A stretch of 64,000 bases of DNA from the NCBI GenBank assembly GCA_964386355.1, contig CAYLQQ010000006.1, positions 2,088 to 66,087 of the forward strand. The letters run 5' to 3'. A program made the position numbers and the translations under genes. This document shows, piece after piece, positions 5,844 through 60,000 of this stretch. Every line of letters begins with the position of its first letter. Position 1 is the first letter of the stretch. Origin of the DNA: an uncultured Pseudomonadales bacterium (GTDB lineage: Bacteria > Patescibacteriota > Microgenomatia > UBA1400 > UBA1449). The notes beneath the pieces were generated by a model. It was not told the DNA's origin. It saw only the letters and a list, made by a program, of their open reading frames with translations, and did not search any database.

Positions 5844-8030
5844 ATGGGTAAGTTTAAAAAATATGCATTTATCTTTATAGGTGTTGTCTTAGTAACATCT
5901 CTCATACCCTTTTACATTTATATCCTTAAAGACCTACCATCCCCACGGACTCTCACCCGTGATGCGTATCCTGTATCTACCGAAATCTACGATCGTCATG
6001 GGACGCTTCTGTATGAGATTTACGCTGATCAAAATAGAACTCCAATTAAACTTGATCAAGTGCCAAAGGATCTCATCAACGCAACTATAGCAATCGAAGA
6101 CAAGGATTTCTATAAGCATGGTGGCTTAGCAATCACAGGGATAATCCGGGCATCTTACAAAACTGTAATCAAGGGAAATGTTCAAGGCGGATCTACAATA
6201 ACGCAGCAACTGGTTAAAACAGCACTATTAAGTCCTGAGCGTACAATCCAACGTAAGATTAAAGAGATATTACTAGCTTCTTTGGTTGAACTTATCTATT
6301 CCAAAGACCAAATACTTGAACTATATCTTAATCACATCCCATACGGTGGTACAGCATATGGTATTGAACAAGCATCACGTCTTTATTTTAACAAGAGTGC
6401 TTCCCAATTAAACTTAGCAGAATCAGCCTTACTTGCCGGTCTACCTCAAGCTCCTAGCAGATATTCACCGTTTGGGTCATCTCCAGAACTTGCAAAGCAA
6501 AGACAAAAACAGGTATTAGATAGGATGGTAGAAGATAAATATATCAATCAGACCCAAGCTGAAGAAGCTTTTACATATTCACTAGCGTATGCTCCTCAGC
6601 AGATTAATATTACAGCTCCACATTTTATTATGTACGTCAAAGACTGGCTTATTGATACATATGGAACACATAAGGTGGAACAAGGAGGCCTGCGGGTTAC
6701 AACTACACTCGATTTACAAACCCAGGAGTATGCCCAAGCCTCTGTTTCTGCCCAAATACAAAAACTCAAGGCATCAAGGGTTACAAACGGAGCTGCACTG
6801 GTTACCAAACCGGCTACCGGTGAAATACTGGCTATGGTTGGTTCTCGCAACTATTTTGATTCCGAGATAGATGGTAACGTCAACCTGACTACCAGTCTGC
6901 GTCAACCCGGTTCTTCAATAAAACCTATAAACTATGCTCTGGGTCTTTTAAAAGGCTATCCAGCCTCTACTATGTTTTTAGATATCCCTACCTGCTTTTC
7001 AGTTAGCGGCCAACCAGGAGCATATTGTCCCAAAAACTATGATGGTGGGTTTCATGGTTCTGTCCAAATGCGCCAAGCGCTTGCAAATTCATATAATATT
7101 CCTGCTGTAAAAATGTTAGCCCTCAACGGAGTTCCTGACCTTATCGCTACAGCTTCAGCCATGGGTATCAGTACGTTCCAAAATCCCCAGCAATACGGTC
7201 TTTCCTTAACTCTTGGTGGCGGAGAAGTAAAAATGGTTGATATGGCAGTAGCCTTTGGTGTCTTTGCCAATAGCGGTATTCGCATAGACCTTAATCCAAT
7301 TCTTAGAGTCAAAACCCATACAGGTGAGATTTTAGAAGAACATAACTATCAGATAAATCCACCCACTGGGCCAAGGGTTTTACCACCTGAAGTCACCTTT
7401 ATTATCTCAAACATTTTAGCTGATAACAAAGCTCGTGTACCTGCCTTTGGTGCCTATTCACCATTGTATATTCCAGGCAAAACGGTGTCTGTTAAAACTG
7501 GCACAACTGACGATTGGCGTGATAATTGGACAATAGGATATACGCCGGAATATCTTACAGCTGTATGGACAGGGAATAATAACAATGAGATTAAGCCGCT
7601 TTTTGTCTCTGGAGTAACCGGAGCCGCGCCGATTTGGAATAGCATTATGTCATATCTTGTCAAAGACCGAGAGGATGTGGCTCAGGCCAAGCCGGATAAC
7701 GTCATTGGGACCAATGTTTGTGCGTATCGTCAATCAGAAGATCCTAACCAAACTTGCGAAGGGCGGTTTGAGTATTATATTAAAGGTACGGAGAAAAATC
7801 AGCTGCATGGTAAAATTGAAAAAAAGAACATCTGGATCGATACAACAACCGGTAGACCACCCCTGCCAAATGTGACTGAAAACTTGGAACTTCAGGAAAA
7901 GACGGTGGCCTTGGATGAGTTTGGTCAGGAGTACTGCTTAGACTGCCCTCATGAAGGCCAGTCAGCCCAGCGAGTTAACTTGGATACTTTTTACGCTCAA
8001 CGGGCAGCCAAAGCAAAAAGTGCCCAATAA
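5844..8030 (+). CDS. Class A penicillin-binding protein (bifunctional transglycosylase/transpeptidase), copy 1
   Basis: The ORF is open from 5607, but the plausible start is the ATG at 5844 (MGKFKKYAFIFIGVVLVTSL, the N-terminal membrane anchor). GT51 motifs are EDKDFYKHGG and GGSTITQQLVK. Transpeptidase motifs are SxxK (PGSSIKP), SxN-like, and KTGT. There is a Cys-containing C-terminal tail. Confidence 0.85.
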   Translation: MGKFKKYAFIFIGVVLVTSLIPFYIYILKDLPSPRTLTRDAYPVSTEIYDRHGTLLYEIYADQNRTPIKLDQVPKDLINATIAIEDKDFYKHGGLAITGIIRASYKTVIKGNVQGGSTITQQLVKTALLSPERTIQRKIKEILLASLVELIYSKDQILELYLNHIPYGGTAYGIEQASRLYFNKSASQLNLAESALLAGLPQAPSRYSPFGSSPELAKQRQKQVLDRMVEDKYINQTQAEEAFTYSLAYAPQQINITAPHFIMYVKDWLIDTYGTHKVEQGGLRVTTTLDLQTQEYAQASVSAQIQKLKASRVTNGAALVTKPATGEILAMVGSRNYFDSEIDGNVNLTTSLRQPGSSIKPINYALGLLKGYPASTMFLDIPTCFSVSGQPGAYCPKNYDGGFHGSVQMRQALANSYNIPAVKMLALNGVPDLIATASAMGISTFQNPQQYGLSLTLGGGEVKMVDMAVAFGVFANSGIRIDLNPILRVKTHTGEILEEHNYQINPPTGPRVLPPEVTFIISNILADNKARVPAFGAYSPLYIPGKTVSVKTGTTDDWRDNWTIGYTPEYLTAVWTGNNNNEIKPLFVSGVTGAAPIWNSIMSYLVKDREDVAQAKPDNVIGTNVCAYRQSEDPNQTCEGRFEYYIKGTEKNQLHGKIEKKNIWIDTTTGRPPLPNVTENLELQEKTVALDEFGQEYCLDCPHEGQSAQRVNLDTFYAQRAAKAKSAQ

Positions 8031-13101: not shown

Positions 13102-13543
13102 TTTTGTGCAATCTTTTTACGTATTTATCATCCTGACTATAGTCTGTATTTAAAAATGATTTTACCAGTTGGAAGCACTTAAACTTGCTCGTGTGATCGG
13201 AAGCAATGGCTAAAACATTGACATGGTCATGAATGGTAAAAGATTCAACCTGACTGTGATCAAAGCCGATGGCACTTCTAATTCCCCTTATCTTATTAGA
13301 GGCAATACTGACGCCTGCACCAGATCCACACAAAATTACCCCTCTATTCTCAGGTGATTCCAATACTTTTTCACATAAAATTTTTGCATAATCAGGATAA
13401 TCATCATCGGATTTATATTCGTATGCACCAAGATCTTTAAATTCGATCTTATTAGAAATCAACCAGGCTTTGAGCTGGTTTTTTAGTTTCATCCCTCGGT
13501 GATCAGCAGCTAAGTAAAGCAAAGAGTAAGAAGTAAGAAACAA
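13091..13543 (-). CDS. rpiB: Ribose-5-phosphate isomerase B (RpiB/LacAB family)
   Basis: Motifs are LAADHRG (aligning to the canonical IGSDHAG) and GVILCGSGAGVSIASNKIRGIRSA. The track start at 13543 is a TTG. A TTG at ~13522 (MLYLAADHRG) fits the family N-terminus better, so the start is uncertain. Confidence 0.75.
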   Translation of the reverse strand: MFLTSYSLLYLAADHRGMKLKNQLKAWLISNKIEFKDLGAYEYKSDDDYPDYAKILCEKVLESPENRGVILCGSGAGVSIASNKIRGIRSAIGFDHSQVESFTIHDHVNVLAIASDHTSKFKCFQLVKSFLNTDYSQDDKYVKRLHKIED

Positions 13544-13602
13544 AAAGTAAGAACAAAGTAATTTCTACTTCATTCTTAAATTATTTTCTTAATTCTATTA
13601 AA

Positions 13603-15605: not shown

Positions 15606-17144
15606 TTATGTGATTATTCTATGTAATTGAGCTGAATTTGAGAGGGGATTTCCTTCAATAACAGTATGTTTGATATCAATTAATAAATCCTTCATAAGAT
15701 TAGCCATAGTATTGTATGCCGGAGACGCCACAGAATGAGGAATTTCTCCAACAATCATATAGCTTCTCTCTCCTGAAAATAATGATTTTCTTTTCGACCA
15801 ACTCATTCTGTCCAATGCTCTATTTGCAGGAAATACGGGATCTCTTTCAGTAAATACATTGAATACTGGGATGTTAAGACCTCCCAACTGTTTTCTAAAG
15901 TGATCAGGCATAGCGTGCATGATGTCACCACCAGATATAAGTACTACCATCAAACGTTTACTAAAATTTATCATAGAGCCGTCTCTGGTTTCTTCTCCTT
16001 TCATCATAGCTTTAATTGTTGGTATCAAGAGTTTTTTACGTCGTTTATATGCCCTGTTTACTTCCTGAGTCTTTTCCGGTGATGCACTTAATGGGTAGGC
16101 TTTTACTATAGTACGATCTATATTGAGTAACTCAGATATCATAGCTTTACTAATTTCTGACTCTGGTATTTGTTCAATTCGCTCAATAAGTTCAGTTTTT
16201 CTAGATTCTAATTTCCTTAATTTTGCTTCCAAATCCTCTTTTTGTATTCTTTTATCTAATCTTTGATCAGGGTGTTCCATTGCATATTTAGTGCGTTCAA
16301 TTTCTTCTTCAACCAACGCAAGGAAAATAGTTGGACAATATGAAGATCCATTCATACTTTCAAGAACTTTCTCTTTATAAAGTTTAAGAACTACGTCATT
16401 TTTTTCATTTGCATTATCAATGTCTCTGAGTATCCTTAGATAGTCTTCTAATGAGGGAAACGTTTGAGAAATAACCCCTTCATTTGATATCATACGCAGA
16501 GTGGCTCTGCCAAATTCTTTTAAATCTTGATCAAATATTGCCCCAGCTTGCATGAATATTACTCCCTGTATTTGACAATTTCCACCTTCAGCCAAAAGCT
16601 TGTTCAATATGGGAATTATATACGGCGCTTCCATTGCCGATGCAGAACGAAAGCATAACGTTATATCATTTCGCGTATTAGGTAGTTGTTGTAAGGCTTG
16701 ATATAAATCTGCAGCTTGTGCGATTGCCCTATCAAGATGAGATCCAGTTACCATCCCTCTAGCATGAGGGTTAAATGAAGAGTCTATCATGATTGAATTA
16801 ACATTTTCTCCTTCAAATTCTGGATCAGCATTGGCTGCATCAGTAGTTTTTCTCGCAATTTCAATCTGAGATCTGACAGAACCACCAGCTCCTGCAAATG
16901 TAATCAATGTTCTTTGACTGGATGAATTTCTTTTTCTTCCTTCAATTAAAGCAATTTCATATTCAGGGGGATCTTCTAATAGTTTTTGTCCAATGGGACC
17001 ATCAGGAAATAACTCTCTACCAAAGCTGTATGTTAATTTAAGTGTATTTCTGTGGGCTTCTTTAGGAATAATTTCGGGGGGAATGTATCCATTTTCGTTC
17101 ATATTTAGAAAAGATTTTACTACAATTTCATAATTAACATACAA
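15606..17144 (-). CDS. Hypothetical 512-aa protein, last gene of the Fic-ligase operon
   Basis: Long intact ORF 32 nt downstream of the ligase. Predicted coiled-coil in the middle (EDLEAKLRKLESRKTELIERIEQIPESE). I see no Walker, HExxH or other diagnostic motif, and no TM or signal peptide. Confidence 0.55.
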   Translation of the reverse strand: MYVNYEIVVKSFLNMNENGYIPPEIIPKEAHRNTLKLTYSFGRELFPDGPIGQKLLEDPPEYEIALIEGRKRNSSSQRTLITFAGAGGSVRSQIEIARKTTDAANADPEFEGENVNSIMIDSSFNPHARGMVTGSHLDRAIAQAADLYQALQQLPNTRNDITLCFRSASAMEAPYIIPILNKLLAEGGNCQIQGVIFMQAGAIFDQDLKEFGRATLRMISNEGVISQTFPSLEDYLRILRDIDNANEKNDVVLKLYKEKVLESMNGSSYCPTIFLALVEEEIERTKYAMEHPDQRLDKRIQKEDLEAKLRKLESRKTELIERIEQIPESEISKAMISELLNIDRTIVKAYPLSASPEKTQEVNRAYKRRKKLLIPTIKAMMKGEETRDGSMINFSKRLMVVLISGGDIMHAMPDHFRKQLGGLNIPVFNVFTERDPVFPANRALDRMSWSKRKSLFSGERSYMIVGEIPHSVASPAYNTMANLMKDLLIDIKHTVIEGNPLSNSAQLHRIIT

Positions 17145-17175
17145 AGTGTGACTAATCGAGAGCTACATTAGAATA

Positions 17176-18936
17176 CTAAAACATTTTGGCAATTGTTTGG
17201 AGTTCCACTAGACTGGTTGCATCTTCCACCCCCTTATCGTCTCTGAACTTAATAAATCTTGGGAAGCGTAAAGAATATCCTGTCTGATACAAAGGAGATC
17301 TAGAGACTGAGTCTGCCCGTATCTCTATAACTAACCCTGGCTCAACCCATACATCAGGCACAAGCGTCTTATCAACAGAGTATTCATCAGGTCTTTTTTC
17401 TATTTTAAGATTGTCACACCTCTCCCGCATCTCTACTATCGATGTTTCGGAAAATCCTGAACCCAATTTTGAGAGAGAAATGATCTTCTCACTATCCCTG
17501 ATACCTACCAACACTTTACCCAGTCCAAATTGAGCCCACTTTCCCTGCCCCTTGAAATATCCCATGACAACAGCATCTACTGTGTCTGCCATATCCGCTT
17601 GCATACCGACTTTATATTTCACCCAGGTAAAGTCACGAGCTCCGGCACGGTAAGGTGCATCCAGTTTTTTTGCCATGAGGCCTTCCAGATTTTGTTCTGC
17701 CATTTCTTTGAAGTAGGTATTGAGGTCTTCAACTTTCTCAACTATGGTTTGGTCAGCAAGCTTTAATGCTTGTGATTGTAAATTATGAGTAAATAGGGCA
17801 ACTAGTTTTTCTCTCCGCTCATGTAAAGGAAAAGTAAGAAGTGACACTCCATCAAGATATATGACGTCAAATACATACGCCCACAAAGGCAGCTGCCTGG
17901 CAGTTTCCGCGATACCATACTTGCGCTTACGCTTGACCGTTTCCTGAAAGGGTAACACTTCAAAGCTATCAGGATCTACAGCAACTGCTTCCCCATCCAA
18001 AATCACACTTTCACAAGAGAGATTTCTGGCTGCTTCTACCAGATCAGGGAACATGGCGGTCGTATCATCAAGATTGCGGGAGAATATCTTAACAAAACAT
18101 GTTTTTTCTTGACTGAAAAGTGATCCTTCACTCTCATTCTGACTATCACGTGATCTATCTAGATGTATTTGAACTCTAAACCCATCAAACTTCGGCTCAA
18201 CAGCGCACCTTCGACCCGACATTTTCTCCAAAATATCCTCTGGATCTGTCAAGGGTGTTGCCCGTGCAGGCCTGATTGGAGTACCGGGAACAGGTATGAT
18301 TTTGCTAATTGCCTCTAGACCATCCTTTTTAAAAATCTGTGCAACCTGCCCGATATCTGCCCGTACATTGTAGGCAAACTCGAGCTCGTTTCTCAGAGAC
18401 TTATCTCCTTTTTCCATCCAGCTAAGAGCGTCAAGAATTGTCATATCTGAAAATCCTAAACGCAACTTGCCTACTGCCATCCTCATAACATACTTCCCAC
18501 TCAAGCTATCAAGTGAACCAAGCAACGTACTCATAACCATGAGTTTGCGCTCCTGTGAACCAAATCCTGAGTCTTTGGCAATTAAAACAAGTTGGCTATA
18601 TACTTCGTTTACTGAAAGTTGTTCTGAAAGGTTCTTTTGTTCTTTTAACTTTTGGTATGCCAAACCCAGGTCTCCTGTTTCCTTAAATACTTCAACTACA
18701 GTTTCTGTAGATATTCCTAAAGATTGAGCAGATGCCCTGATCATCATTTTCTCAGCCAACATGAGATCAAGACCTATAAATTTTGGTGCCAGCATACCAA
18801 GTGAGAGGTAACAGATTTTATCGATCTCAACCGCTTCTGCCTCTGTAAACAATTGTGCTAATTGCTCTGTCATCGCCAAACGCGCCGAGGTAGACTCAAT
18901 CTGTTGAAAGTAGGTAGAGAGTGTTGAAAAAAGCAT
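17176..18936 (-). CDS. lig: ATP-dependent DNA ligase (Lig1/archaeal-type, with N-terminal DNA-binding domain)
   Basis: 586 aa. Adenylation motif I is KxDGxR (EPKFDGFRVQIH). Downstream motifs are EGLMAKKLDAPY and an OB domain. The N-terminal ~200 aa resemble the Lig1 DNA-binding domain. Confidence 0.85.
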   Translation of the reverse strand: MLFSTLSTYFQQIESTSARLAMTEQLAQLFTEAEAVEIDKICYLSLGMLAPKFIGLDLMLAEKMMIRASAQSLGISTETVVEVFKETGDLGLAYQKLKEQKNLSEQLSVNEVYSQLVLIAKDSGFGSQERKLMVMSTLLGSLDSLSGKYVMRMAVGKLRLGFSDMTILDALSWMEKGDKSLRNELEFAYNVRADIGQVAQIFKKDGLEAISKIIPVPGTPIRPARATPLTDPEDILEKMSGRRCAVEPKFDGFRVQIHLDRSRDSQNESEGSLFSQEKTCFVKIFSRNLDDTTAMFPDLVEAARNLSCESVILDGEAVAVDPDSFEVLPFQETVKRKRKYGIAETARQLPLWAYVFDVIYLDGVSLLTFPLHERREKLVALFTHNLQSQALKLADQTIVEKVEDLNTYFKEMAEQNLEGLMAKKLDAPYRAGARDFTWVKYKVGMQADMADTVDAVVMGYFKGQGKWAQFGLGKVLVGIRDSEKIISLSKLGSGFSETSIVEMRERCDNLKIEKRPDEYSVDKTLVPDVWVEPGLVIEIRADSVSRSPLYQTGYSLRFPRFIKFRDDKGVEDATSLVELQTIAKMF

Positions 18937-20042
18937 TATTTACTCCGTATCGAATAATAGCTTCCCTTTGTCTTGCCCACCTTTTCAATCAACCCCTTAT
19001 CAATTAGTCCCTTAAGTTCTCGCAAAATGGTATCTTCTGAGATCATTGGCAACATGACCTGAGCGTCTTTCATGATCATCTGCTCGTGCTCCCGCATAAA
19101 CTCCAATAGTTTAATTTGTCGATCTGTTAATGCAATTTGCTGACCCAGTTTATTGAGCATCCTCTGGTCCATAGATAGCTGACGCACCTTTTCTTTAACC
19201 TGATCCAGTTCTTGAGCCAACCCAAACACGAAATATTCCAACCATGTTGTCATATCTCCGGTAATAGCAACACTCTGCAGCGCCTGATAGTACTCAACCG
19301 GATTTTTATCGTAATACTCTTCTAGGCTAAACAGTTTGCGGATATCATACCCCTCTCTAAACATAACTAGAGTAGCAAAAGCTCGTGCTACTCTACCATT
19401 GCCATCTACAAACGGGTGAATACGAACTAGTTCATAATGGGAAATTCCGGCTCTCAGAACAGGATGAATATCTTTAGAAACAAATGAGTTGATCCACTCT
19501 AAAAAGTGTTCGATCTGAAACGGAACCTCGATAGGATTTGGGGGACGAAAACTAATCTCCCCTGTAGCGGCATCCTTAATGACAACCTTGGCTGTCCGGT
19601 AATGCCCTGACTGGTCTGTGGACAAAATTTTATCTACACAGAGCTTGTGCATATACTTGATCTCATTTTCCTGATAGCGGGTGAATTTCTGGGTGGCTTC
19701 AAACAGGCTATCAACGTACTCCATAACTTTGCGGTAGTTGATGATCTCCTGAATATCACGGTCCCTGGCAACCACACCAGTTTCTGTAGCAATGACTTTG
19801 GGAGCTTTGAAGATGTTGTTTTCTTTCTCAAGATGGTCGTAGACTACTTTGGCTTGTCCTAGGGTTAGGTCATTACCCTCCAGATGTGTGCCGTAGTGGA
19901 CGGTACGAATAACCGCCTCTTCCTGAAACTTTTTCTCCCAGGCAGGAATGATGGGAGCAACATCGATCATGCCTTTAGCTCCCTCAATTTTACCTATGTA
20001 CGTTAATATTTTGTTGGAAATGGAGTATTTTGGTTCAAACAT
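18936..20042 (-). CDS. Fic-family protein (AMPylator-type) with N-terminal inhibitory-helix-like motif and C-terminal winged helix
   Basis: 368 aa. Fic active-site motif HPFVDGNGRVARA. N-terminal GTHLEGN resembles the (S/T)xxxE(G/N) auto-inhibitory motif of class II Fic proteins (one residue short). C-terminal HTH-like domain. The stop overlaps the ligase start by 1 nt. Confidence 0.82.
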   Translation of the reverse strand: MFEPKYSISNKILTYIGKIEGAKGMIDVAPIIPAWEKKFQEEAVIRTVHYGTHLEGNDLTLGQAKVVYDHLEKENNIFKAPKVIATETGVVARDRDIQEIINYRKVMEYVDSLFEATQKFTRYQENEIKYMHKLCVDKILSTDQSGHYRTAKVVIKDAATGEISFRPPNPIEVPFQIEHFLEWINSFVSKDIHPVLRAGISHYELVRIHPFVDGNGRVARAFATLVMFREGYDIRKLFSLEEYYDKNPVEYYQALQSVAITGDMTTWLEYFVFGLAQELDQVKEKVRQLSMDQRMLNKLGQQIALTDRQIKLLEFMREHEQMIMKDAQVMLPMISEDTILRELKGLIDKGLIEKVGKTKGSYYSIRSK

Positions 20043-20218
20043 GAAATTGTAGTAAGAAGTATGAAGTAAGAAGTATGCAAATTAGGTATAGAATCTCATG
20101 TTTCATACTCCATGATCCATGCTTCACCTCTTTGATTCTCGCATTTTTTGCGGAGATTGGCAAGCGGGATATAACCCTGTATATGTATTGCATTGATAGT
20201 TTTTGCTATCATAAATGC

Positions 20219-20911
20219 ATGAGTAAGAATACCCTCATGTGTATAGGTCTTGCTGTTTTTATTCTTTCGATTGGTTTAATAACACTTATTCCAGAAATCA
20301 ACCAGCTAAAATTTTCACAGCAAAAAGTTTCTCAATCACATTTATCAGGCCAGTTTGATCAGTCAATATCAGAGGCGTATTTTAATAACAAATCTGTAAA
20401 TCACCCATCCATTCCACAAACAGATCAACAGAGACAGGTCATGGGAGATACTACCGGTACGCACAAATGGATCGAGGTTGACCTGACCAACCAGAGGCTC
20501 TATGCATATGAAGATGGATATAAAGTCTTTGACTTTCTGGTTTCGACCGGTAAATGGGGCAGAACCCCAATCGGTACATTCGACATCTGGATCAAACTGC
20601 GCTACACCACTATGTCCGGAGGCAATAAAGCTCTTGGAACGTACTACTATCTACCTAACGTTCCCTTTACTATGTTTTTTTATAATACTGATTATCCGAA
20701 ATGGGTTGGCTATGGGATACATGGAACCTACTGGCATGAGAATTTTGGCCATCCAATGTCACATGGGTGTATCAATATGAAAAATGAAGAAGTAGAACAG
20801 CTCTACTACTGGGCTCAACCCGATTTGCCGGATGGTAAAACCAGCACAACTACTACGACAGATAATCCTGGTACAAAGGTGTATATTTACGGAGTAGCAC
20901 CGAAAGAATGA
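20219..20911 (+). CDS. L,D-transpeptidase (YkuD family)
   Basis: The track ORF is open from 20075. The likely start is the ATG at 20219 (MSKNTLMCIGLAVFILSIGLITLI, the anchor). Catalytic motif HGTYWHENFGHPMSHGCINM (His...SHGC). Confidence 0.78.
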   Translation: MSKNTLMCIGLAVFILSIGLITLIPEINQLKFSQQKVSQSHLSGQFDQSISEAYFNNKSVNHPSIPQTDQQRQVMGDTTGTHKWIEVDLTNQRLYAYEDGYKVFDFLVSTGKWGRTPIGTFDIWIKLRYTTMSGGNKALGTYYYLPNVPFTMFFYNTDYPKWVGYGIHGTYWHENFGHPMSHGCINMKNEEVEQLYYWAQPDLPDGKTSTTTTTDNPGTKVYIYGVAPKE

Positions 20912-21783: not shown

Positions 21784-21831
21784 AGGTATCTATTATATTT
21801 AGTAGGGAGTTAATTTTCTCAAACTCTTTTA

Positions 21832-22887: not shown

Positions 22888-22935
22888 ACATGTATATTAG
22901 CATGTTATTTCAATATATATACCAGAGTATTTCCA

Positions 22936-23814: not shown

Positions 23815-23831
23815 AATGGTATACTTAAACT

Positions 23832-36995: not shown

Positions 36996-38447
36996 ATGTA
37001 TTACTTACTAATGAAGCCCTCTTACATCCTTCCCCTTATCTACATCTTTCTGTTTACTATCCTGGCACTAGCTAGTCTTGAAGCCTTTCCCATTTTTGCG
37101 GATGAGGCTATATATCTGTTTTGGGTTCAAAAGATCTTGGGAGGTATTGCTCATCCCTTTATATCACTCTACGATGGTAAACCACCTCTATTTATCTGGC
37201 TTTCAGCCTTAGGTTCAATGGACGGATCATCTCTCTTGTTATCCGGAAGGACTATATCTGTAATGGCATATGGAGCCACACTTACTCTACTATTTTTCAG
37301 TATAAAAAAACAGAGTTTAACATGGGCATGGATTGCCCTACTTCTTACCTCACTATCACCCTTTGTCTTTTTCCATTCCCGTCTGGCGATCATGGATTCA
37401 TTACTGACTATGTTTTTAACGGCAGCAATTCTGACCTGGACTTTTAGCACTCACCGCTTTCGGGGTCTTTTGACGGGAATTTTTCTGGGACTGGCTTTTT
37501 GGACCAAAACTCCTACTCTGTTTCTGATCCCTTTTCCTATCCTTTCTGTCTTACTGTTTGAAAGAAATAAAACAAATTTCAAACAAGCCCTCATTGCTTT
37601 TGGAGTGTCTTTAGCTGCAATATTGAGCCTACGAATATCAGTCTGGTTCCCCTTTTTATTTAATCGCGCTGGTGACTTTACTTACCCGATATCAGCCATT
37701 CTCTCTGGCCAATTGAAACATATACCAACAAATTTTTATGAGCTGCTCTATTGGCTCTCAGCCTACCGTCTTTGGCCTGTAATTTTAATTAGTTTACTAT
37801 CTCTAGGTTTGGCGCTTAAAGAAAAAAATAAACTGGTACTCAACTTGGTTTTGGCTTGTATCTGTTTTAGTGTCCCGTTTGTACTCCTAGGCAAAGTTCT
37901 CTCTCCACGTTACTATCTATTGCTGGGTATCCTCCTGCCCGTGATTGCAGGCTTCAGCCTGTCAAAACTAAACAAGCGCCTGAGCATGACAGCTTCTGTG
38001 CTACTTGCCAGCCTGTATATTCCGTTTATTTTTACCTTGCTTGCTACACCACTCTCAGTCAATTTGCCTGCAGTCGATAAAGACCAGTACCTGCAAAACT
38101 GGGCTAGCGGTATTGGTATTCGAGAAGCTTCAGAATTTTTCATTGATGAGGCTAAAAATGGTAGCGTTCAGATACTTTCAGAAGGTTACTTTGGAACACT
38201 TCCAGATGGTCTATTTGTAGAGATAGGAGATAAAATAAAAGACCTGCCTTTGCAGATTGATGGTGTGGGCGAGAATGGCTCCCCAAATTATTACCGTAAA
38301 CTAACTGAAAATACAGCCGATAGTATTTTCTACATCGGCAATCATGATAGAATAAACCAAGCTACTTTAGATGAGTTAGAACTGATCCTATCTTATTCAA
38401 AAGTTGATGGAGGACCCGCTTTAGAAGTGTATAAAGTAAAAAGGTAA
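36996..38447 (+). CDS. GT-C glycosyltransferase, family 39/83-like (ArnT/PMT-type)
   Basis: 483 aa. First-loop acidic motif FADEAIYLFW. About 11 TM helices followed by a C-terminal soluble domain. Confidence 0.6.
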   Translation: MYYLLMKPSYILPLIYIFLFTILALASLEAFPIFADEAIYLFWVQKILGGIAHPFISLYDGKPPLFIWLSALGSMDGSSLLLSGRTISVMAYGATLTLLFFSIKKQSLTWAWIALLLTSLSPFVFFHSRLAIMDSLLTMFLTAAILTWTFSTHRFRGLLTGIFLGLAFWTKTPTLFLIPFPILSVLLFERNKTNFKQALIAFGVSLAAILSLRISVWFPFLFNRAGDFTYPISAILSGQLKHIPTNFYELLYWLSAYRLWPVILISLLSLGLALKEKNKLVLNLVLACICFSVPFVLLGKVLSPRYYLLLGILLPVIAGFSLSKLNKRLSMTASVLLASLYIPFIFTLLATPLSVNLPAVDKDQYLQNWASGIGIREASEFFIDEAKNGSVQILSEGYFGTLPDGLFVEIGDKIKDLPLQIDGVGENGSPNYYRKLTENTADSIFYIGNHDRINQATLDELELILSYSKVDGGPALEVYKVKR

Positions 38448-44788: not shown

Positions 44789-47700
44789 ATGCATCAATTA
44801 TTTTCAAACCGCCTGTTTTTTTCTTTCAGTTTTTTAACAATCTTTGGCCTCACTAACTTTTTACCAAATTTCAAACTCCCTTTTTTCCATACCTCTCCCT
44901 CGCCTACACCTGCTCCGCATGCAACAGAAATGCCACAAACCGATGGAGATGTACTGGGAAATTACCGCTACAAGCCCAGCATTCACATCAGTGGAGGCAA
45001 GGATAGCTATAGTACGGGTGGACTTATAGCACTTTCTTCAAAAGAAGAACCGTCAGTTGAGATTAGTGCATACAATACTTCGGGCGAGGTCCAAATTGAT
45101 GTCTGGGAAGCAGATGAGCAGGCTGTGTTAGAGTACCTGACCCATGACAAAGATGGGAAACAAACCAAACGGATTGAGTCTGTTGACAGATTCAAGTTTA
45201 TCGGTACCAGCAAAGCAGATATTAATGGCAGCTACGGAAGAGAATCAAAAGCCTTGCTCCCTCTTGCTGAAACAGGAATCTATTTTTTAAAGATCAGTAA
45301 AGGAGATATTGCAGAACAAGCGTTTATCATTAGGTCATCTTTTGGAGCGGTAGTAAAGGAAGGTGACGATGAACTCATCTTTTGGTCACAGGATTTTGAT
45401 ACCAAACGAAGTCTACAGTCAGGAACGGTCACTACGTTTAACTTGCTCGATAACGCAGTTGAAGTCACAAGTGCAGGGATTGACGGACAAGGTGTTGCCA
45501 AACTGCCTGTGTCAGAAAACAATGATATTGCTCTGGTAAAAAATGACGGTAAACTGGCAGTGGTCCCCTTAAACCTTCGGTACCTTAACTACGGCTATTC
45601 GTATAAAGAATTTCAGCGCAAAGAAAGGCAAAATAAGTTCTTTACCTTTACAGATAGACCGCTGTACAGACCTGGAGATACGATCTATTTTAAATCAGTT
45701 GTCAGAGATGACGATGATGCAAGATATACCCTACCAGCAGGAAATGTCACTGTTGGTTTATACTCAGGTTGGTCAGAAGAAGATAAAATCAGTGAAAAAA
45801 CACTCACATTTGATGAGTTTGGTACAGTTTCAGGTGATTTTAAATTGCCTGAAACTGCAAAAACCGGAGACTACCATGTTAAAATCAACCTTACAGAACG
45901 AATCTACTCAAATTCCTATTTTCAGGTCGAACATTTCCGTAAACCTGAATATTCTATTGATGTAAACATACCTAAAACCACATACATTTCAAAGGATGAA
46001 ATGGTATTTACCATATCTGGTTCATACTTTTCCGGTCAACCTCTTGCTAATCAAGCTGTAAAATACCGGGTCTTTAGCGGAGATTACTACCAGTATGAGT
46101 ATTATGATGAAACTGACGCATATTTTCTTAATGAGGATTATCGGTACGGAAACTGGTGGGGTAATAGCTCAGAGCAATCTTCGATGACGGTCACTCTCAA
46201 TCATCTGGGCAAAGCTGATGTCACCTTAAAACTGGATAATAATTCAAACAGAAACCGAGTGTATTCAATCGAAGCAGAGTTTGATAACGGCTCAGGCAAT
46301 CCAAGCTTTGTACGGAAAAATATGCTTGTGTACGCTGGTGAGTATGACCTGTACCGCAAAGACTACCATTCATATTATGGTTCGCTTTCACAACCACTTG
46401 ATCTTCCGCTTCGATTAGTTAGCCACGTAAACCAGCCAGTTAGTAATATTGATCTACATACAAACATTGAGGTTACAAATTGGGTAGAAGAACGTGTCCC
46501 GGAGGAAAAATACCCAAGGTATAGGAAGGTGGTTGAAACTGTACCAAGTATATCTTCAAAAACTGATAATCAAGGGTATGCTACCTTCAGTTTCCAACCT
46601 ACCAAGACGGGCTCATACACATTTCATGTAATAGGTACCGACAAACGGGGCAATACAATCTCAAAAGATTTTTATGCCTATGTAACCGATAAAAATTACC
46701 CGTACTTTAGCTCTGAACAAGATACAGGTTTGAGCTTACAGCTAGATAAAAAGGAGTATAACCCAACTGATACAGCTACACTCTCAATTTTTTCAAACAT
46801 ACCCAACCGCGATATCTTTTTGACATTTGAACGAAATCGAGTAAATAGGTACCAGGTATTATCATTGGAGGGTACCAATGGCTCAGTAGAAGTCCCTCTT
46901 TTTGATACTGACATGCCTAATATTTACCCGACTTTGACAAGTTTTTCCGATGACAATATTGATAGGGTTTCAGAAAATTTGAAGGTTTCAACTGTTTCTA
47001 AACAGCTTCAGGTACGTATCCAAACAGATAAACCCAGTTATGGTCCTGGTGAAGTTGTAACTGCCCGGCTCGAGACTAGTGATATGGCTGGAAATCCCCA
47101 ATCAGCTGATGTAGCCTTGTGGGCAGTTGATAAGGCGTTATTTGAATTGGTAAGTGAAAATCCTAAAAAAATCAGTGAAACATTCTGGAGTGAGCGCTAT
47201 GCAAATACCTCAACTGCCCACTCCCTTGAGGGCATTACAGCTAATGTGGCTGAAATGGGGGGTTGTTTTACTGCTGGCACACAAATTTTATTAGCCAACG
47301 GGACCTCTTCTCCTATTGAATCGATCAAACCGGGAGATGTAATTAAAACAAGAAAAAGCGAAACCAACAGTGCGCTTGTCAAAGCAAAAGTTAGTTCTGT
47401 TCATATTGCTACTGTTTCAGGGATATTGAAAATAAACAATAACCTGGAAGTTACACCTGAACACATTGTCTGGCTCAATGGCCGCTGGCAGGAAATTGGT
47501 AATGCTCAGATTGGTGATCTACTCTTTGACAGGCAGGGTAAAAAAGTACAGATAGCATCAATCGAATGGTTGTCCGGAAAACGAACCGTATATAACCTTG
47601 AAATTGAAAATAGGCATACGTATTTTGCAAACTCGGTTTGGGTGCATAACCAGAAAGGCGGAGGTGGAAGGACAGTTTTTAAAGATACTGCATACTGGAA

Positions 47701-49969
47701 CCCTTCTGTAAGAACTGATACTTCAGGCCGTGCCGTACTTCGTTTCAAGCTGCCGGATAACCTGACTACGTGGGTATTATCTGCAGTTGGAGATACACAA
47801 GCAACTACTGTCGGACAAACACGAAATGAAATTGTAGTTTCCAAAGATGTCATTGTTCGCCCATTCTTACCAAATATCATTCGTGAACAAGATGATCTGG
47901 CAATTCTAACCCTGGTTCAAAACTTTACTGATCAGGATCATAGTTTTGATATCAATTTATCTTTTGACTCAGGTGATGTTAGAGATGCGACAAAATCAGC
48001 AGTTTTTATCAAATCAAAAGAGTCTGTTGAGGTTACATGGCAGGTAAAGGCAACTAAAGTTAATCCTGATTCTAAACTCCGTTTTTCTGCTATTGCTACC
48101 GATAACTCTAAACTGCAGGATGTGATCACTCAACAGATACCTGTCCACGCATATGGGTATTTAGAAACCCGGGGTGAAACAGGTTATGGCGATGCGTCAT
48201 TTAAACCAGTACTCGCAAAAGACAGCAGCCCAGAGAAATCCTCCGTTACCCTATCACTCTCTCCTTCACTAGTCGGAATGTTGCCTACAGCAATGCAGTA
48301 CTTAGTTGATTACCCGTACGGCTGCGTAGAGCAAACCACGAGCCGTCTCATGCCTGTGTTGCAAGCTAAACAAAACCCTGAACTCTTTGCGGATGTAATC
48401 AAAGACAAAAATCTTGATGAAATGGTTAACAAAGGATTGGATCGTCTGAGAACTCTGCAGTACTTTGATGGTGGTTGGAACTGGTGGTCATATGGTGAAT
48501 CAAATCCCTTTATCACTGCATATGTTGTTGAAAACCTAGTTCTTGCTAAAGACTTGGGGTTTTCAGTGGACAGTGAAATGCTCCAATTGGCTGAAAGCTT
48601 CTTATCCCGGATTGATAAACAAATTACAGCAGAAGATATGATTCCCAAAAAATATGGCCTTGCCCTGCTTAAATCTGAAACGTATAAAACGTCAAGAAGT
48701 CCTGTCATTGAAAACAGTCCAGATCTTACCGCTCTGGCAGTTATGACAAATTACCTCAATGGAGTGACAGATCCCTCAGAAAACGGTTTGCAAAAACTTA
48801 TTGCAATGGGAAAGGCACAAGGAGATGGTTTGTACTGGGAAGCTGGCAAGAAAGATCGCTTTGCATCCAAAGATGCCTCAACAGCTCTGGCTTTACGGGC
48901 AATTCTTTTGGCGGGCACGGATGCTGATAGGGAAATAGCAGTCAAAGCTGCACGGTACTTAACCAAGCAACACCGTAGTCACTACTGGTCAAACACCTAC
49001 AGCACAGTGCAGGTTATACGCGCAATTACTGCCCTTGCCAATACTGATAACGAAGCTAATCCAAACTATACGTATTCGGTAACCCTGGATAACAAGATTG
49101 TTAAACAAGGAACAATAAATTCTATTAACCAAAAACCAGTTCAGATTCAAGTTCCCATAGCCAACCTAAAACCCAATGGTTCAGTATTGAGCATTTCTAA
49201 GCAAGGTGAAGGTCAAATATACTCCACATTAGTCACAAAGGAATTTCATACTGATAGAACTGCAAAAGCAATAGATCACGGCATGACCATAACCAGAGAG
49301 TATGTAAATGAAAAAGGAGAGGAATATAGTCTTGGTCTTGGTGATACTGCAATTGTAAAACTGACAATAGGCGGACTCGGGGCTGGCGATTACTATGGCG
49401 TGATCGCTGATGAACTACCCGCAGGACTGATCCCTGTTGTTGAAACTCTAAAAAATGAACAGTACAGAGATACTGGAAGCAGTTCTTATGATTATTATGC
49501 AGGCAGTAAAGAGTATACACAAAATGGTGTAATAATTTCTCTCTACCAGATATTACCAGGAACAAGAACATACGAATACAAAGCAAGGGTCGTTTCTCAT
49601 GGATCGTTTATTGTTCCTCCTGCCACAACGTCTCTCATGTACACACCTGAAATATATGGACAATCAGATGCTTACACGTTAACCATAGACAAAGAATCAA
49701 AAATTATTCCAGGTAAAAAGATCCAGAAAATCATTAAGGATAAAAGCAATTTACGACTAGATGAAAAAGCTAAACTCAAGCTGGGGATAATTTTACTAGT
49801 TGCTGTAATACTGATAATAAGCTTGCTTTTGCTACGTCCGGCTATTAGAAATACGTTTTTATATAAACAGCTTACACAAAAGCTACGTATTCTACGCAGA
49901 AAACAGAATCCAGAAACTATACATTTAGAAGATGATATACAGCAAAATCCGCCCCCTCAGCAACAGTAA
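44789..49969 (+). CDS. Alpha-2-macroglobulin-family surface protein (1726 aa) with embedded Hint domain
   Basis: N-terminal signal/anchor MHQLFSNRLFFSFSFLTIFGL. Long beta-rich region of macroglobulin-like repeats. Thioester motif YPYGCVEQTTSRLMP, with CVEQ at ~48323..48334. Alpha-helical TED-like region (LQYFDGGWNWWSYGESNPFITAYVV). C-terminal TM helix LGIILLVAVILIISLLLL. Residues ~826-954 form an intein-type Hint domain, listed separately. Confidence 0.82.
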   Translation: MHQLFSNRLFFSFSFLTIFGLTNFLPNFKLPFFHTSPSPTPAPHATEMPQTDGDVLGNYRYKPSIHISGGKDSYSTGGLIALSSKEEPSVEISAYNTSGEVQIDVWEADEQAVLEYLTHDKDGKQTKRIESVDRFKFIGTSKADINGSYGRESKALLPLAETGIYFLKISKGDIAEQAFIIRSSFGAVVKEGDDELIFWSQDFDTKRSLQSGTVTTFNLLDNAVEVTSAGIDGQGVAKLPVSENNDIALVKNDGKLAVVPLNLRYLNYGYSYKEFQRKERQNKFFTFTDRPLYRPGDTIYFKSVVRDDDDARYTLPAGNVTVGLYSGWSEEDKISEKTLTFDEFGTVSGDFKLPETAKTGDYHVKINLTERIYSNSYFQVEHFRKPEYSIDVNIPKTTYISKDEMVFTISGSYFSGQPLANQAVKYRVFSGDYYQYEYYDETDAYFLNEDYRYGNWWGNSSEQSSMTVTLNHLGKADVTLKLDNNSNRNRVYSIEAEFDNGSGNPSFVRKNMLVYAGEYDLYRKDYHSYYGSLSQPLDLPLRLVSHVNQPVSNIDLHTNIEVTNWVEERVPEEKYPRYRKVVETVPSISSKTDNQGYATFSFQPTKTGSYTFHVIGTDKRGNTISKDFYAYVTDKNYPYFSSEQDTGLSLQLDKKEYNPTDTATLSIFSNIPNRDIFLTFERNRVNRYQVLSLEGTNGSVEVPLFDTDMPNIYPTLTSFSDDNIDRVSENLKVSTVSKQLQVRIQTDKPSYGPGEVVTARLETSDMAGNPQSADVALWAVDKALFELVSENPKKISETFWSERYANTSTAHSLEGITANVAEMGGCFTAGTQILLANGTSSPIESIKPGDVIKTRKSETNSALVKAKVSSVHIATVSGILKINNNLEVTPEHIVWLNGRWQEIGNAQIGDLLFDRQGKKVQIASIEWLSGKRTVYNLEIENRHTYFANSVWVHNQKGGGGRTVFKDTAYWNPSVRTDTSGRAVLRFKLPDNLTTWVLSAVGDTQATTVGQTRNEIVVSKDVIVRPFLPNIIREQDDLAILTLVQNFTDQDHSFDINLSFDSGDVRDATKSAVFIKSKESVEVTWQVKATKVNPDSKLRFSAIATDNSKLQDVITQQIPVHAYGYLETRGETGYGDASFKPVLAKDSSPEKSSVTLSLSPSLVGMLPTAMQYLVDYPYGCVEQTTSRLMPVLQAKQNPELFADVIKDKNLDEMVNKGLDRLRTLQYFDGGWNWWSYGESNPFITAYVVENLVLAKDLGFSVDSEMLQLAESFLSRIDKQITAEDMIPKKYGLALLKSETYKTSRSPVIENSPDLTALAVMTNYLNGVTDPSENGLQKLIAMGKAQGDGLYWEAGKKDRFASKDASTALALRAILLAGTDADREIAVKAARYLTKQHRSHYWSNTYSTVQVIRAITALANTDNEANPNYTYSVTLDNKIVKQGTINSINQKPVQIQVPIANLKPNGSVLSISKQGEGQIYSTLVTKEFHTDRTAKAIDHGMTITREYVNEKGEEYSLGLGDTAIVKLTIGGLGAGDYYGVIADELPAGLIPVVETLKNEQYRDTGSSSYDYYAGSKEYTQNGVIISLYQILPGTRTYEYKARVVSHGSFIVPPATTSLMYTPEIYGQSDAYTLTIDKESKIIPGKKIQKIIKDKSNLRLDEKAKLKLGIILLVAVILIISLLLLRPAIRNTFLYKQLTQKLRILRRKQNPETIHLEDDIQQNPPPQQQ
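47264..47650 (+). other. Intein-like Hint / bacterial intein-like (BIL, A-type) domain inserted in the A2M protein
   Basis: 129 aa. Block A CFTAGTQILLANGTSSPIESIKPGDVIKT begins with Cys and is closely similar to canonical intein N-termini. Block B LEVTPEHIVWL (T..H). Block F/G VYNLEIENRHTYFANSVWVHN ends in His-Asn. There is no endonuclease domain. The +1 residue is Gln, not Cys/Ser/Thr. Flanks are Gly-rich (EMGG | ... | QKGGGG). Confidence 0.75.
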
Positions 49970-57081: not shown

Positions 57082-60000
57082 TTATCTCTTCCTCTTCCCT
57101 AAGACAGCCATAGCTCCAATAGCTGCTATGGCTAGGAGAATACCAATCAGCTGGACATAGACTGGTACAAAACCAGACTTTGGAAGCTCAGGTGCTTTAG
57201 GAACGGTTGGACTGCAGCTGCAGTCATTCTCTTTAGGACACTCTACGTTCACACATTTACTCTCACCTTCTACACTACGGCACACAAGAGGACTTTGACA
57301 CTGCGCATTGACTGAGCAGCTGTGATAACAACTGTAGGGAGGTGTAGCTTGAGGAACAGGACTGGGGTTGGGGGTTGGCGTGGGTGTGATAGTTGGAGTT
57401 TGCACTGGAGCGTTTGATACTACACACGATACTCCTTGTCTGTAATAACCCTGAGTACAGATATACGTACACCTTACATCACCCGTACAGGCATCTGCAA
57501 GCCTCACAGCAGTATTAGCAGTAAGACCAGCCAAATAGTTGGAACAGGGTTGAGAATGAGCTGGAACAGAACCTATACAGGTGTAGGACTGGGACGGAAG
57601 TTGACAACTACCACTAATGAGCTGATAACCAGAATTACAGGTATATTCACATTTTCTGTTTGCAGTACAAGCTGGGACAAGAGTTTTGGGTAAATTAGCA
57701 GTAAGGCCCTGTGAGTCGCCTGAGCACAGTTGGGCATAGGTTGGGGTTTGACCAGTACAGGTAAAGTCTATGCCTCCGCTACTGGGAATACAGGTCCCAC
57801 TGCTGCAGCTGGTACCAGTAGCGCAGGGTGCCTGGTTTACCCAACGGTTACTAGTACATAATTGGGGAATACCAGTTGTACTGCACCGCATTGATCCGTT
57901 ACTTGGACAGTAGTTTTCAATTGTCATACAAATACCATTGCCTGTGCACTCCTCACCCTGGGAACAGGCTACAGCTGATTCCCAGGCTGTTCCTTGAGTG
58001 TTACATACTTGATAGCTGGATTGGGAAGCACAGCGTTTCTGCTGAGGGGTACAAACAGAACCTGAGACAGGAACACAGGCACCATTCTCACACACCTGTG
58101 ATGAAGTACAGGAATTCTGGTTTGTCCACTGATTGTTAGTACAAGTTTGAGGAGTATTGCCTGTACAGCGGGGAGCACTACCACTGGCACAGTAGTTGGG
58201 AATAGCTTGGCAGGTAAATGTAGTAGTAGAACAGACACTTCCTGATGTACAAGTACTAGACACTACCCATCCCTTACGATCACTACTACAAGTTTCAATA
58301 TTCCCGTTACTACATCGTTTGGCTCCACTACTGCATGCATAAGAGTGGCAACTCCCAGATAAGCAGTACGTATCAGACTGGGTACAGTCTGTTCTTGTCA
58401 CCCACTGATTGTTAGTACAAGTTTGAACTATGCTACCCTGACAACGGGTAGCGTTTGTAGTACAAACGAAAGGAGTTGGATTAGATGTGGGAGTTAGAGT
58501 GGGGGTAGGATATGGAGTATTACCCGAATAAATCGGAACATTTGTCAACATTGCTTTATTTAAAAAACCTGGACAAAACCCAACTCCATATTGTGCCACA
58601 TTAATCTCTGATGATGAGCAGTTCGGATCCTGATCAGTAGGGTTAAAGTAATACTGATTACTAGACAAACCATTACCTACAGATACAGGAGGATCAGTAA
58701 AGAAACTACTTTGAAGACATAGGTAACTACTCTTATCTGAAACAATCCCACCTTTTATGGCGTTAATTATTGCTTGTTTTCCATCTTCCTCTTTTCCTTT
58801 CCAGTAAATTAATTTTGAAAAATTATTGGGATGATCTGGCTCATATCCATGAGCTCCTACGTTTTGATACCTACTGAAATTACCATTTTGCATCTTAGAG
58901 TCCCGCGGTCCCCAGCCATTAAACTTTAACCAAATGTTTGATTGATATGTTGAATCCATCCAAATTTCAAGTATTTTCCCAACCCTGCCAGTTGCAGACA
59001 ACCCATTGCCTCTTTGCCATACCACAGGAGTTGGCGCGAAGATTTCTACGTAGCTAGTTATGATCTGCTTCATTGCCTGAATAAAGTAATCATCAAACAC
59101 AAAGCATTCTGAATTATTCACTGAATCCAAAGGACATTTGAGCTGGTCAGATTCTGTACATACCTCAACTTTATTTCCAGGTACTAAATTACTAGGATTA
59201 CACGTGCTTCTCTTAGCAACAATATCGCTGGCTACTTGTTGGACTGAAAGAGTGGGATAATGTTGTTTTTGTACATATTTTGCCAGCGACAAAACTGCCG
59301 GACAATCTGGATTAAGTACGTCAGGCAAGCAGCTGCAACTTGGATTTTTGCGAGAGGGGTCGCAGTAGGCTGGACATTTTGAGCTTAAAACACATTCGCC
59401 TGACTCACCACCCGACATCATTTGAATAGCTTCAACTACCCCATCATCAATATCCTGTTGAAACTCCTGTTTCATAGCCCGTAAGGCATTAGCATAGTAG
59501 TCTTGAAATAAGGGATCCCATACGGCAGCAATTTTTGTCGGGAACTGAATATGGGTAGTGCCTTCTGGTGGAGTTGTACTGCCTGAAGCTGGTAGAGTCA
59601 ACTCAGTAAAGCTATTACTTCCTGGTGATGTCTCTTTTAAATACTTAGCTTCGCTAACATCAACAAACTGAGAGTTTGGCCATACAGGTTTAACGCTATT
59701 TTTAAGGTTATTAGGGTCATACCATACGTAACGTGACTTGTTGCGGTAGACGTTTAGATCTCCGCACCCGGCAGATATATACGTTTCTATTCCTTTATTT
59801 ATTGCCCACTTAGGGACATTATGTTCTTTATTTGACTTATCCCCTACTTGAATTTGAAGCATTACTTTCTTACCTAAAGACCTCGCCTTATCTACCTCAC
59901 TTCGTTTCTGGCTAAAATTATATGTCCCCTCTTGTGGTTCGATAGCTGCCCAGCTATCACCAGCACCATTACTAAAATCAAAGTACGTGGAGGATGAATA

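Follow-up and report, generated by a model that had tools for sequence, protein, structure and literature searches.

A Fic protein gene paired with an ATP-dependent DNA ligase gene in Microgenomates-group bacteria

Winged-helix class II Fic proteins are very widespread, few of them have an established role in bacterial physiology, and the targets assigned to them (EF-Tu, FtsZ and histone H3) each come from single organisms. The closest described systems to the one considered here are CccR, SoFic and CbFic2. Palindromes close to the -35 and -10 boxes of its promoter allow CccR to repress its own gene, and the protein that it AMPylates is FtsZ (PMC9755527). SoFic, as a dimer, binds DNA within 100 bp upstream of its own start codon, and both AMPylates and deAMPylates EF-Tu (bioRxiv 10.64898/2026.07.09.737422). 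In CbFic2, DNA binding by the C-terminal helix-turn-helix (HTH) toggles AMPylation and deAMPylation, and the inhibitory glutamate is needed for deAMPylation (PMC10628234). Here, we describe a relative of these proteins encoded in a 64,000-nucleotide stretch of DNA (positions 2,088 to 66,087 of contig CAYLQQ010000006.1, GenBank assembly GCA_964386355.1), hereafter the window, in which the fic gene is directly followed by lig, the gene for an ATP-dependent DNA ligase.

The two genes form a conserved operon in bacteria of the Microgenomates group (Candidate Phyla Radiation (CPR)/Patescibacteria), which is apparently undescribed; a literature search in CPR and gene-neighbourhood contexts found no description of a Fic protein paired with a DNA ligase. 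The placement of Fic ahead of the ligase gene suggests that Fic controls the ligase. The initial annotation of this DNA had reported a tightly coupled operon of three genes, the third encoding an orphan protein; its observations are confirmed with small corrections, and its interpretation is supported in part.

The Fic–ligase gene pair

Three open reading frames (ORFs) lie in tandem on the minus strand at the coordinates first annotated. The gene fic (18936..20042) encodes a class II-like Fic enzyme of 368 amino acids with a C-terminal winged helix-turn-helix (wHTH), and lig (17176..18936) encodes an ATP-dependent DNA ligase of 586 amino acids and of the Lig1/archaeal three-domain type; the third ORF is discussed below. 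The overlap of 1 nucleotide (nt) between the Fic stop and the ligase start is real, one base being common to the fic stop codon and the lig ATG (AAATAATG), and no terminator-like site was found between fic, lig and the third gene.

A comparison of gene order, proposed with the initial annotation as a check, bears out the adjacency of fic and lig and not that of the third gene. When Fic was used as the seed, 80 metagenomic loci were collected, 79 of them with a Fic protein 47–55% identical to that of the window and one with a protein 88% identical. The downstream count was limited to the 57 loci in which the sequence continues for at least 1 kb past fic, and in 56 of these a ligase gene follows fic on the same strand; the upstream neighbours are less constant, with nnr present in 42 of 61 loci, recF in 32 of 44 and fpg in 16 of 33. 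When the ligase was used as the seed, 10 of 16 species-representative genomes had a Fic ortholog (44–56% identity) just upstream, encoded in the same orientation. The six genomes in which Fic is missing comprise two Babeliales-labelled metagenome-assembled genomes (MAGs; L011 and L017, where L marks our locus numbers) and four others. The pair spans several Microgenomates-group lineages and is kept despite unrelated upstream neighbours (L003, L004, L013, L022, L031, L053 and others), while no relatives were found in viral contigs. An operon of convenience in one compact genome, which had been offered as an equal alternative, does not describe a juxtaposition that is so strongly conserved and so often translationally coupled.

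The spacing of the two genes varies. Among 75 non-redundant pairs, eight overlap by 4 or 1 nt, 18 are separated by 0–30 nt, seven by 31–120 nt, 25 by 121–330 nt and 17 by more than 330 nt, so that 26 of the 75 overlap or lie no more than 30 nt apart; the gaps exceeding 330 nt contain unrelated inserted genes. Between fic and lig in about 20 loci with gaps of 180–320 nt (among them L042, L088, L051, L037, L064, L031, L078, L028, L016, L053, L071, L089, L030, L091, L015, L035, L007 and L066) there is a conserved protein of 60–70 amino acids with two hydrophobic helices, for example MNLSGPGITYLLMVIPTMFAIVVIGQGIYKLTKEEPDGGIVIAFGIVFLVLVVAAYFFFIR. Its ORF is tightly coupled to the genes on both sides: in most loci it begins 0–18 nt past the end of fic, and in six its stop codon and the ligase ATG overlap by 4 nt. 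The small protein, which recalls the small Sofic antitoxin AS1, has no significant Pfam match and is absent from the window.

A wider block is also apparent, in which fpg, an unnamed ORF of 233 amino acids, recF and nnr (Carb_kinase) precede fic and lig; it is seen in the window at about 20900–24000 and in L007, L016, L028, L040, L055, L087, L088, L090, L102 and L104. Two DNA-repair/replication genes therefore lie a few kb upstream of the pair on the same strand. Divergent from fic in the window is a gene for a YkuD-type L,D-transpeptidase (20219..20911, plus strand), which L102 and L104 lack; in both, nnr lies directly against the fic promoter.

The window belongs to the CPR/Patescibacteria, Microgenomates group: the nearest named relatives of its Fic protein are from Candidatus Beckwithbacteria, and relatives of its ligase occur in MAGs labelled Gottesmanbacteria, Woesebacteria and 'Microgenomates group'. 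Several MAGs with ligase relatives bear the titles 'uncultured Pseudomonadales', 'Gammaproteobacteria', 'Pseudomonadota' or 'Clostridia bacterium' (L003, L004, L005, L007, L009, L012, L013 and L018, most of them with the fic–lig pair), and these titles look unreliable given the gene content and nearest relatives.

The Fic protein matches PF02661 at 78.9 bits, passing the Pfam gathering threshold of 24, and the PADLOC SoFic model PDLC03963 at 1.2e-48. Its active-site motif HPFVDGNGRVAR (amino acids 209–220; 19383..19418, minus strand) fits the canonical HxFx(D/E)GNGRxxR, and H209, F211, G214, G216, R217 and R220 are invariant in ortholog alignments of 9 and 43 sequences. The inhibitory-helix motif reads GTHLEGN (amino acids 51–57; 19872..19892, minus strand), and the difference from the canonical (S/T)xxxE(G/N) that the initial annotation had singled out for checking is genuine: Glu55 is kept and Gly51 takes the place of Ser/Thr. 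In the same two alignments G51, T52, E55, G56 and N57 are invariant and residues 53–54 vary. As in class II proteins, E55–G56 comes after a helix (residues 33–53 of the model) and N-terminal to the Fic core; the Ser/Thr of that class, four residues before the Glu, is replaced by Gly in every aligned ortholog, and because of Gly51 we regard the protein as a class II variant in this motif and not as a canonical member. It is not a toxin–antitoxin Fic of class I (VbhT/VbhA, FicT/FicA), as the inhibitory motif lies inside Fic and fic has no small ORF beside it in the window.

The C-terminal wHTH (amino acids about 300–368; 18939..19145, minus strand) consists of three helices and a beta-hairpin wing. 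In an AlphaFold2 model built on 43 orthologs, with a predicted local distance difference test (pLDDT) score of 86, DSSP assigns helices to residues 307–319, 324–330 and 336–348 and strands to 352–355 and 362–365. The wHTH region of some orthologs has PF08220 among its precomputed Pfam matches, weak Csa3/CasR HTH matches were obtained with the C-terminal region, and sequence matches to the PDB entries 8CIL, 8UQU and 7XUX extend through this domain. Full-length Foldseek matches of the model are 4RGL, CbFic2 (8CIL), CccR (7XUX) and SoFic (3ZEC/3EQX); FICD (for example 6I7G) is the top sequence match to the Fic core (E=1e-18). The window protein is of the SoFic/CccR/CbFic2 type: it has an inhibitory helix at the N-terminus and a winged helix at the C-terminus, with a canonical active-site motif between them.

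The ligase is a nick-sealing enzyme of the ordinary three-domain kind. Pfam identifies the DNA-binding, adenylation and OB domains (DNA_ligase_A_N, PF04675; DNA_ligase_A_M, PF01068; DNA_ligase_A_C, PF04679), the score on TIGR00574 is 340.4 bits against a cut-off of 217.8, and the top solved relative is PDB 2HIV ('Thermostable DNA ligase', E=1.5e-101). Motif I, of the form KxDG, reads KFDG (18181..18192), with K249 as its lysine. When 57 Fic-linked ligases were compared with six unlinked ones, just three alignment columns set the two groups apart (A120, V521 and E538), with no Ser, Thr or Tyr among them.

The promoter element and the leader repeat

A consensus scan predicts a promoter for fic and lig at 20134..20163 (minus strand), with a -35 box TTGCCA (20163..20158), a spacer of 17 nt and a -10 box GAGAAT (20140..20135) preceded by TG. 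Within the spacer lies an inverted repeat, CGCA-N5-TGCG (CCGCAAAAAATGCG; 20140..20153, minus strand), which is a candidate operator. The arrangement of TTGCCA-17-GAGAAT with CGCA-N5-TGCG recurs ahead of fic in many loci, and two close relatives, L102 and L104, keep it even with nnr, not YkuD, as the upstream gene.

The element is specific to fic. Searched against 872 kb of related DNA, a DNA profile of it gave 19 matches with E<0.1, of which 18 are at a fic promoter; the same-strand matches lie 33–121 nt upstream of the fic ATG, and two are read on the opposite strand. The sole match away from fic at this threshold is in L082 (9337..9359, minus strand; TTTCCGCAGAAAGTCCGATAATT, E=0.027), downstream of the ligase and on the opposite strand. 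An unbiased k-mer test found CCGCA/TGCGG in 41 of 85 fic upstream regions, compared with 26 of 278 other upstream regions of the same loci (p=7e-14), and these sites cluster 20–50 nt ahead of the fic ATG. In the 64-kb window the element occurs only once in a promoter context. A role as the box of a wider regulon was considered and rejected, since the window's other two matches to the pattern both fall within coding regions and there is a single extra profile match, at L082:9359.

The 14-bp direct repeat that had been placed in the promoter region upstream of Fic does exist, and it sits in the predicted 5′ leader instead. It takes the form CATACTTCTTACT(T/A) in two copies (20050..20077, minus strand) and belongs to a period-7 array of 3.6 copies, which reads TCTTACT on the mRNA strand and stops 7 nt short of the Fic ATG. 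The window has nine arrays of period 7 with 3.5 copies or more, as against 0–1 in each of 20 dinucleotide shuffles, so the repeat is beyond chance yet not specific to this operon. The nine arrays start at 1962, 11574, 13525, 20051, 31445, 36949, 36981, 61561 and 61612 and have 3.6–4.9 copies; seven are intergenic, and several end 1–35 nt before a start codon. The unit AGTAAGA is found twice in the window, at 13525..13553 and at 20051. Related loci have other heptamer arrays upstream of fic (TAATTCC in four copies in L019; also L097, L055, L072 and L074); others have no array, or a hairpin in its place. In L102, the closest relative on a long contig, the fic leader has an inverted repeat at 5925..5995 (agaactcagaat…attctgagttc) where the window has the heptamer array, the leader being variable between the two while the promoter element is conserved.

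The 14-bp repeat was rejected as a Fic operator because its sequence is not conserved in relatives and because the window holds nine such arrays. It is a feature of the genome or clade that happens to fall in the predicted leader. Intergenic heptanucleotide direct repeats are described for genomes of the Beggiatoaceae (PMC4679880).

The third gene and other features of the window

The third ORF (15606..17144, minus strand) encodes 512 amino acids if translation begins at the TTG at 17144; public gene calls start it at the ATG at 17102 (15606..17102), which gives 498 amino acids. The gap between the ligase and this gene is short, as first annotated, and measures 31 nt (not 32) to the TTG and 73 nt to the ATG. 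The third gene is possibly co-transcribed with fic and lig, while the claim of a conserved unit of three genes fails: no homolog of the third gene was found in 96 related loci (L003–L098), and it is missing from fully syntenic relatives with Fic proteins 87% and 70% identical to that of the window. In those relatives the order is fpg-recF-…-nnr-fic-lig, followed by an ORF of 130 amino acids on the opposite strand, one of 180 amino acids, LOG, rpiB and gap. The nearest homolog of the third protein (39% identity) is encoded next to SecDF genes and has neither a Fic nor a ligase gene close by. A recent lineage-specific insertion, the third gene lies downstream of the fic–lig module and outside it; as the YkuD gene is lineage-specific too, both flanks have gained genes while fic and lig stayed intact.

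The statement that the third protein has no recognisable domain holds for a direct Pfam scan only, as a family profile and a predicted structure identify it as a divergent alpha/beta-hydrolase. Direct Pfam, PADLOC and PDB sequence searches with the protein gave nothing meaningful, word-indexed homolog searches returned the protein alone, and matches to DndD and SIR2 were rejected as coiled-coil noise. An exhaustive HMMER search over 1.84 billion cluster representatives yielded a family of 25 proteins at E<=1e-3, including the query, of which nine reach 1e-10. Abhydrolase_1 matches nine of 24 members, and the family consensus around the nucleophile is GHSLGG. The AlphaFold2 model (pLDDT 87.5; predicted template modelling score, pTM, 0.87) has an alpha/beta core broken by a helical lid of about 200 amino acids (residues about 190–400), and its Foldseek matches in the PDB at E<=1e-3 are nearly all alpha/beta-hydrolases.

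A putative catalytic triad comprises Ser153 in FRSASA (16635..16652), Asp421 in RDPVFP (15828..15845) and His456 in IPHS (15732..15743), all on the minus strand. Across an alignment of 24 family sequences S153 and H456 do not vary, and D421 is conserved at 90% or more; each residue comes after the expected strand in the model, and the Ser-Asp-His order is canonical. Both the fold and this order are held in common with the alpha/beta-hydrolase superfamily (MhpC, 1U2E; feruloyl esterase, 7DQ9; monoacylglycerol lipase, 7L4U). The third protein differs from that superfamily in its long helical lid, in the very sparse family to which it belongs, in having no Pfam match of its own and in its nucleophile elbow: in the window protein and its two nearest relatives the elbow is F-R-S-(A/M)-S-A instead of G-x-S-x-G. 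Activity is uncertain because the elbow of the window protein reads F-R-S-A-S.

Elsewhere in the window, a gene at 44789..49969 (plus strand) encodes a bacterial alpha-2-macroglobulin of 1726 amino acids (MG2, bait region, A2M, TED and bMG10) with a Hint-type domain (Vint/PT-HINT, amino acids about 825–954) between the bait region and A2M, which may be an intein or a Hint insertion. Two further proteins are without a Pfam match at E<=1e-5, namely a secreted-looking, Cys-rich repeat protein of 1043 amino acids (57082..60213, minus strand) and a protein of 483 amino acids (36996..38447, plus strand). An Rfam scan of the whole window gave zero matches.

Possible links between Fic and the ligase

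By analogy with its relatives, Fic may be an autorepressor that binds the inverted repeat of its promoter and sets the level of the co-transcribed ligase, with the Fic domain providing a second, enzymatic output; this is the reading we favour, and we regard it as about evenly poised between right and wrong. A Fic dimer would probably bind CGCA-N5-TGCG between the -35 and -10 boxes and so repress both its own gene and that of the ligase, which would be co-transcribed and, in the window, translationally coupled. Cells would then hold more or less ATP-dependent DNA ligase according to the state of the Fic protein. Since the inhibitory Glu55 is kept, the Fic domain would be autoinhibited or deAMPylating by default, and it might also AMPylate or deAMPylate some target as a post-translational output.

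Several points weigh against an autorepressor acting at this site. A clear copy of the element is present in only about 19 loci, and other lineages have variants or different upstream sequence. The half-site was not found before ligases lying more than 120 nt from fic (2 of 40), which means that control of the ligase there would need read-through. The arms of the repeat are just 4 bp long, and the TGCG arm overlaps the extended -10 (TGn), so its conservation could partly reflect promoter function alone. The case for an operator is one of conservation and analogy only, and the element could be the site of a different regulator, for instance LexA. Operator type and wHTH subtype were seen to covary, which was set aside as confounded by phylogeny.

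Coupling at the protein level, with the ligase or the intermediates of its reaction as the substrate of Fic, is compatible with autorepression and could hold alongside it, and we consider it rather unlikely. Fic might switch the ligase by AMPylating or deAMPylating one of its Ser, Thr or Tyr residues, strip AMP from the ligase-Lys249-AMP adduct, or clear AMP from abortive 5′-adenylated DNA in a proofreading role like that of aprataxin, with the winged helix keeping Fic on the DNA. Fic proteins and DNA ligases both handle AMP-phosphate chemistry, and the pair is very strongly and specifically conserved, with a neighbourhood that is rich in DNA-repair genes (fpg and recF); the frequent translational coupling of fic and lig favours equimolar synthesis. 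To our knowledge, however, deAMPylation by Fic is documented only for O-linked AMP on proteins and not for Lys-N-AMP or a DNA pyrophosphate linkage. The intact active-site motif and the invariant deAMPylation Glu, which has this function in FICD, CbFic2 and SoFic (PMC10628234), also fit with coupling of this kind, whereas the three columns that separate Fic-linked ligases from the others contain no Ser, Thr or Tyr, and the relatives that have been studied target EF-Tu, FtsZ and histone H3 rather than ligases. A fuller version of the proposal is more doubtful still. It would have a DNA-tethered Fic, made in step with the ligase from an autoregulated operon, reversibly AMPylate the ligase or, as a Glu-dependent deAMPylase, clear stalled ligase-AMP or 5′-adenylated DNA.

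The pair might instead owe its persistence to inherited synteny, as part of a slowly rearranging block (fpg-recF-nnr-fic-lig) in small genomes and with no functional link between its members. The whole block is indeed syntenic in many loci, the ligase has no Fic-specific adaptation, unrelated genes separate fic and lig in the 17 of 75 pairs with gaps greater than 330 nt, and the ligase relatives of L011, L017 and four further genomes occur without Fic. Retention of the pair is nevertheless 98%, compared with 48–73% for the other adjacencies of the block; it occurs in at least four unrelated upstream contexts and survives insertions at its flanks, and stop/start overlaps have arisen in independent lineages. 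Persistence in different contexts and the repeated overlaps make mere inheritance of gene order improbable.

Very improbable, given the fixed core position of the locus, is a defence or toxin-immunity module, as once suggested, in which Fic is an abortive-infection toxin of the SoFic type and the downstream gene or genes an antidote or passenger: the PADLOC SoFic match, the small antitoxin AS1 downstream of E. coli Sofic (PMC12249575) and the hydrophobic protein encoded between fic and lig in about 20 loci would suit such a module, but the PADLOC model covers Fic proteins of this architecture in general, the inhibitory Glu is intramolecular and invariant, the 1-nt overlap leaves no small ORF between the genes in the window, and the locus occupies a fixed housekeeping site among fpg, recF and nnr in nearly every related genome, not the variable islands or patchy distribution of defence genes, with no relatives in viral contigs.

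What is new here is that a Fic protein of the SoFic/CccR type, presumably a regulator, is hard-wired to a DNA ligase. The pairing is kept across a radiation of uncultured bacteria and offers a testable candidate for what Fic controls, namely expression of the ligase and possibly its activity. For the biology of the CPR, it points to regulated DNA end-joining or nick-sealing in minimal genomes. A Fic-dependent switch or proofreading step acting on the ligase would, if true, be a new layer of control, and clearance of ligase-AMP or 5′-adenylated DNA would give bacteria a Fic-based functional counterpart to aprataxin. Should the link be transcriptional only, the element would still be a defined promoter/operator pair in a lineage with almost no known regulatory sites.

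Set beside the described systems, the window protein shows both similarities and differences. CccR from Yersinia pseudotuberculosis (7XUX) has the same inhibitory helix, Fic core and C-terminal HTH and is a full-length structural match, and the arrangement of its palindromes near the -35 and -10 boxes is seen in the window sequence too. Unlike the window protein, CccR is a secreted effector and toxin of the type VI secretion system that acts on FtsZ, it has the canonical SARIEG motif and no link to a ligase, and identity between the two is only about 16–17% in the structural alignment. SoFic from Shewanella oneidensis (3EQX/3ZEC) matches the window protein both by hidden Markov model (1.2e-48) and by structure, and is a promoter-binding, bifunctional enzyme. 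It differs in targeting EF-Tu and in belonging to a sporadic family that is implicated in phage defence and has the antitoxin AS1 in E. coli, whereas the window gene has a fixed core position with a DNA ligase next to it.

CbFic2 from Coxiella burnetii (8CIL), the second-best structural match, is a class II Fic protein with a C-terminal DeoR-type winged helix; in contrast to the window protein, it is an effector aimed at the host, where it modifies histone H3, and it is not partnered by a ligase. FICD/HYPE (6I7G) is likewise of class II, and its Glu toggles AMPylation and deAMPylation, but it is a eukaryotic enzyme of the endoplasmic reticulum with TPR domains, no winged helix and BiP as its target. 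The window ligase has its DNA-binding, adenylation and OB domains and its KxDG motif in common with Lig1-type ligases (2HIV, human LIG1), and it differs from these archaeal and eukaryotic enzymes in being bacterial and in being encoded in an operon that is headed by a Fic gene.

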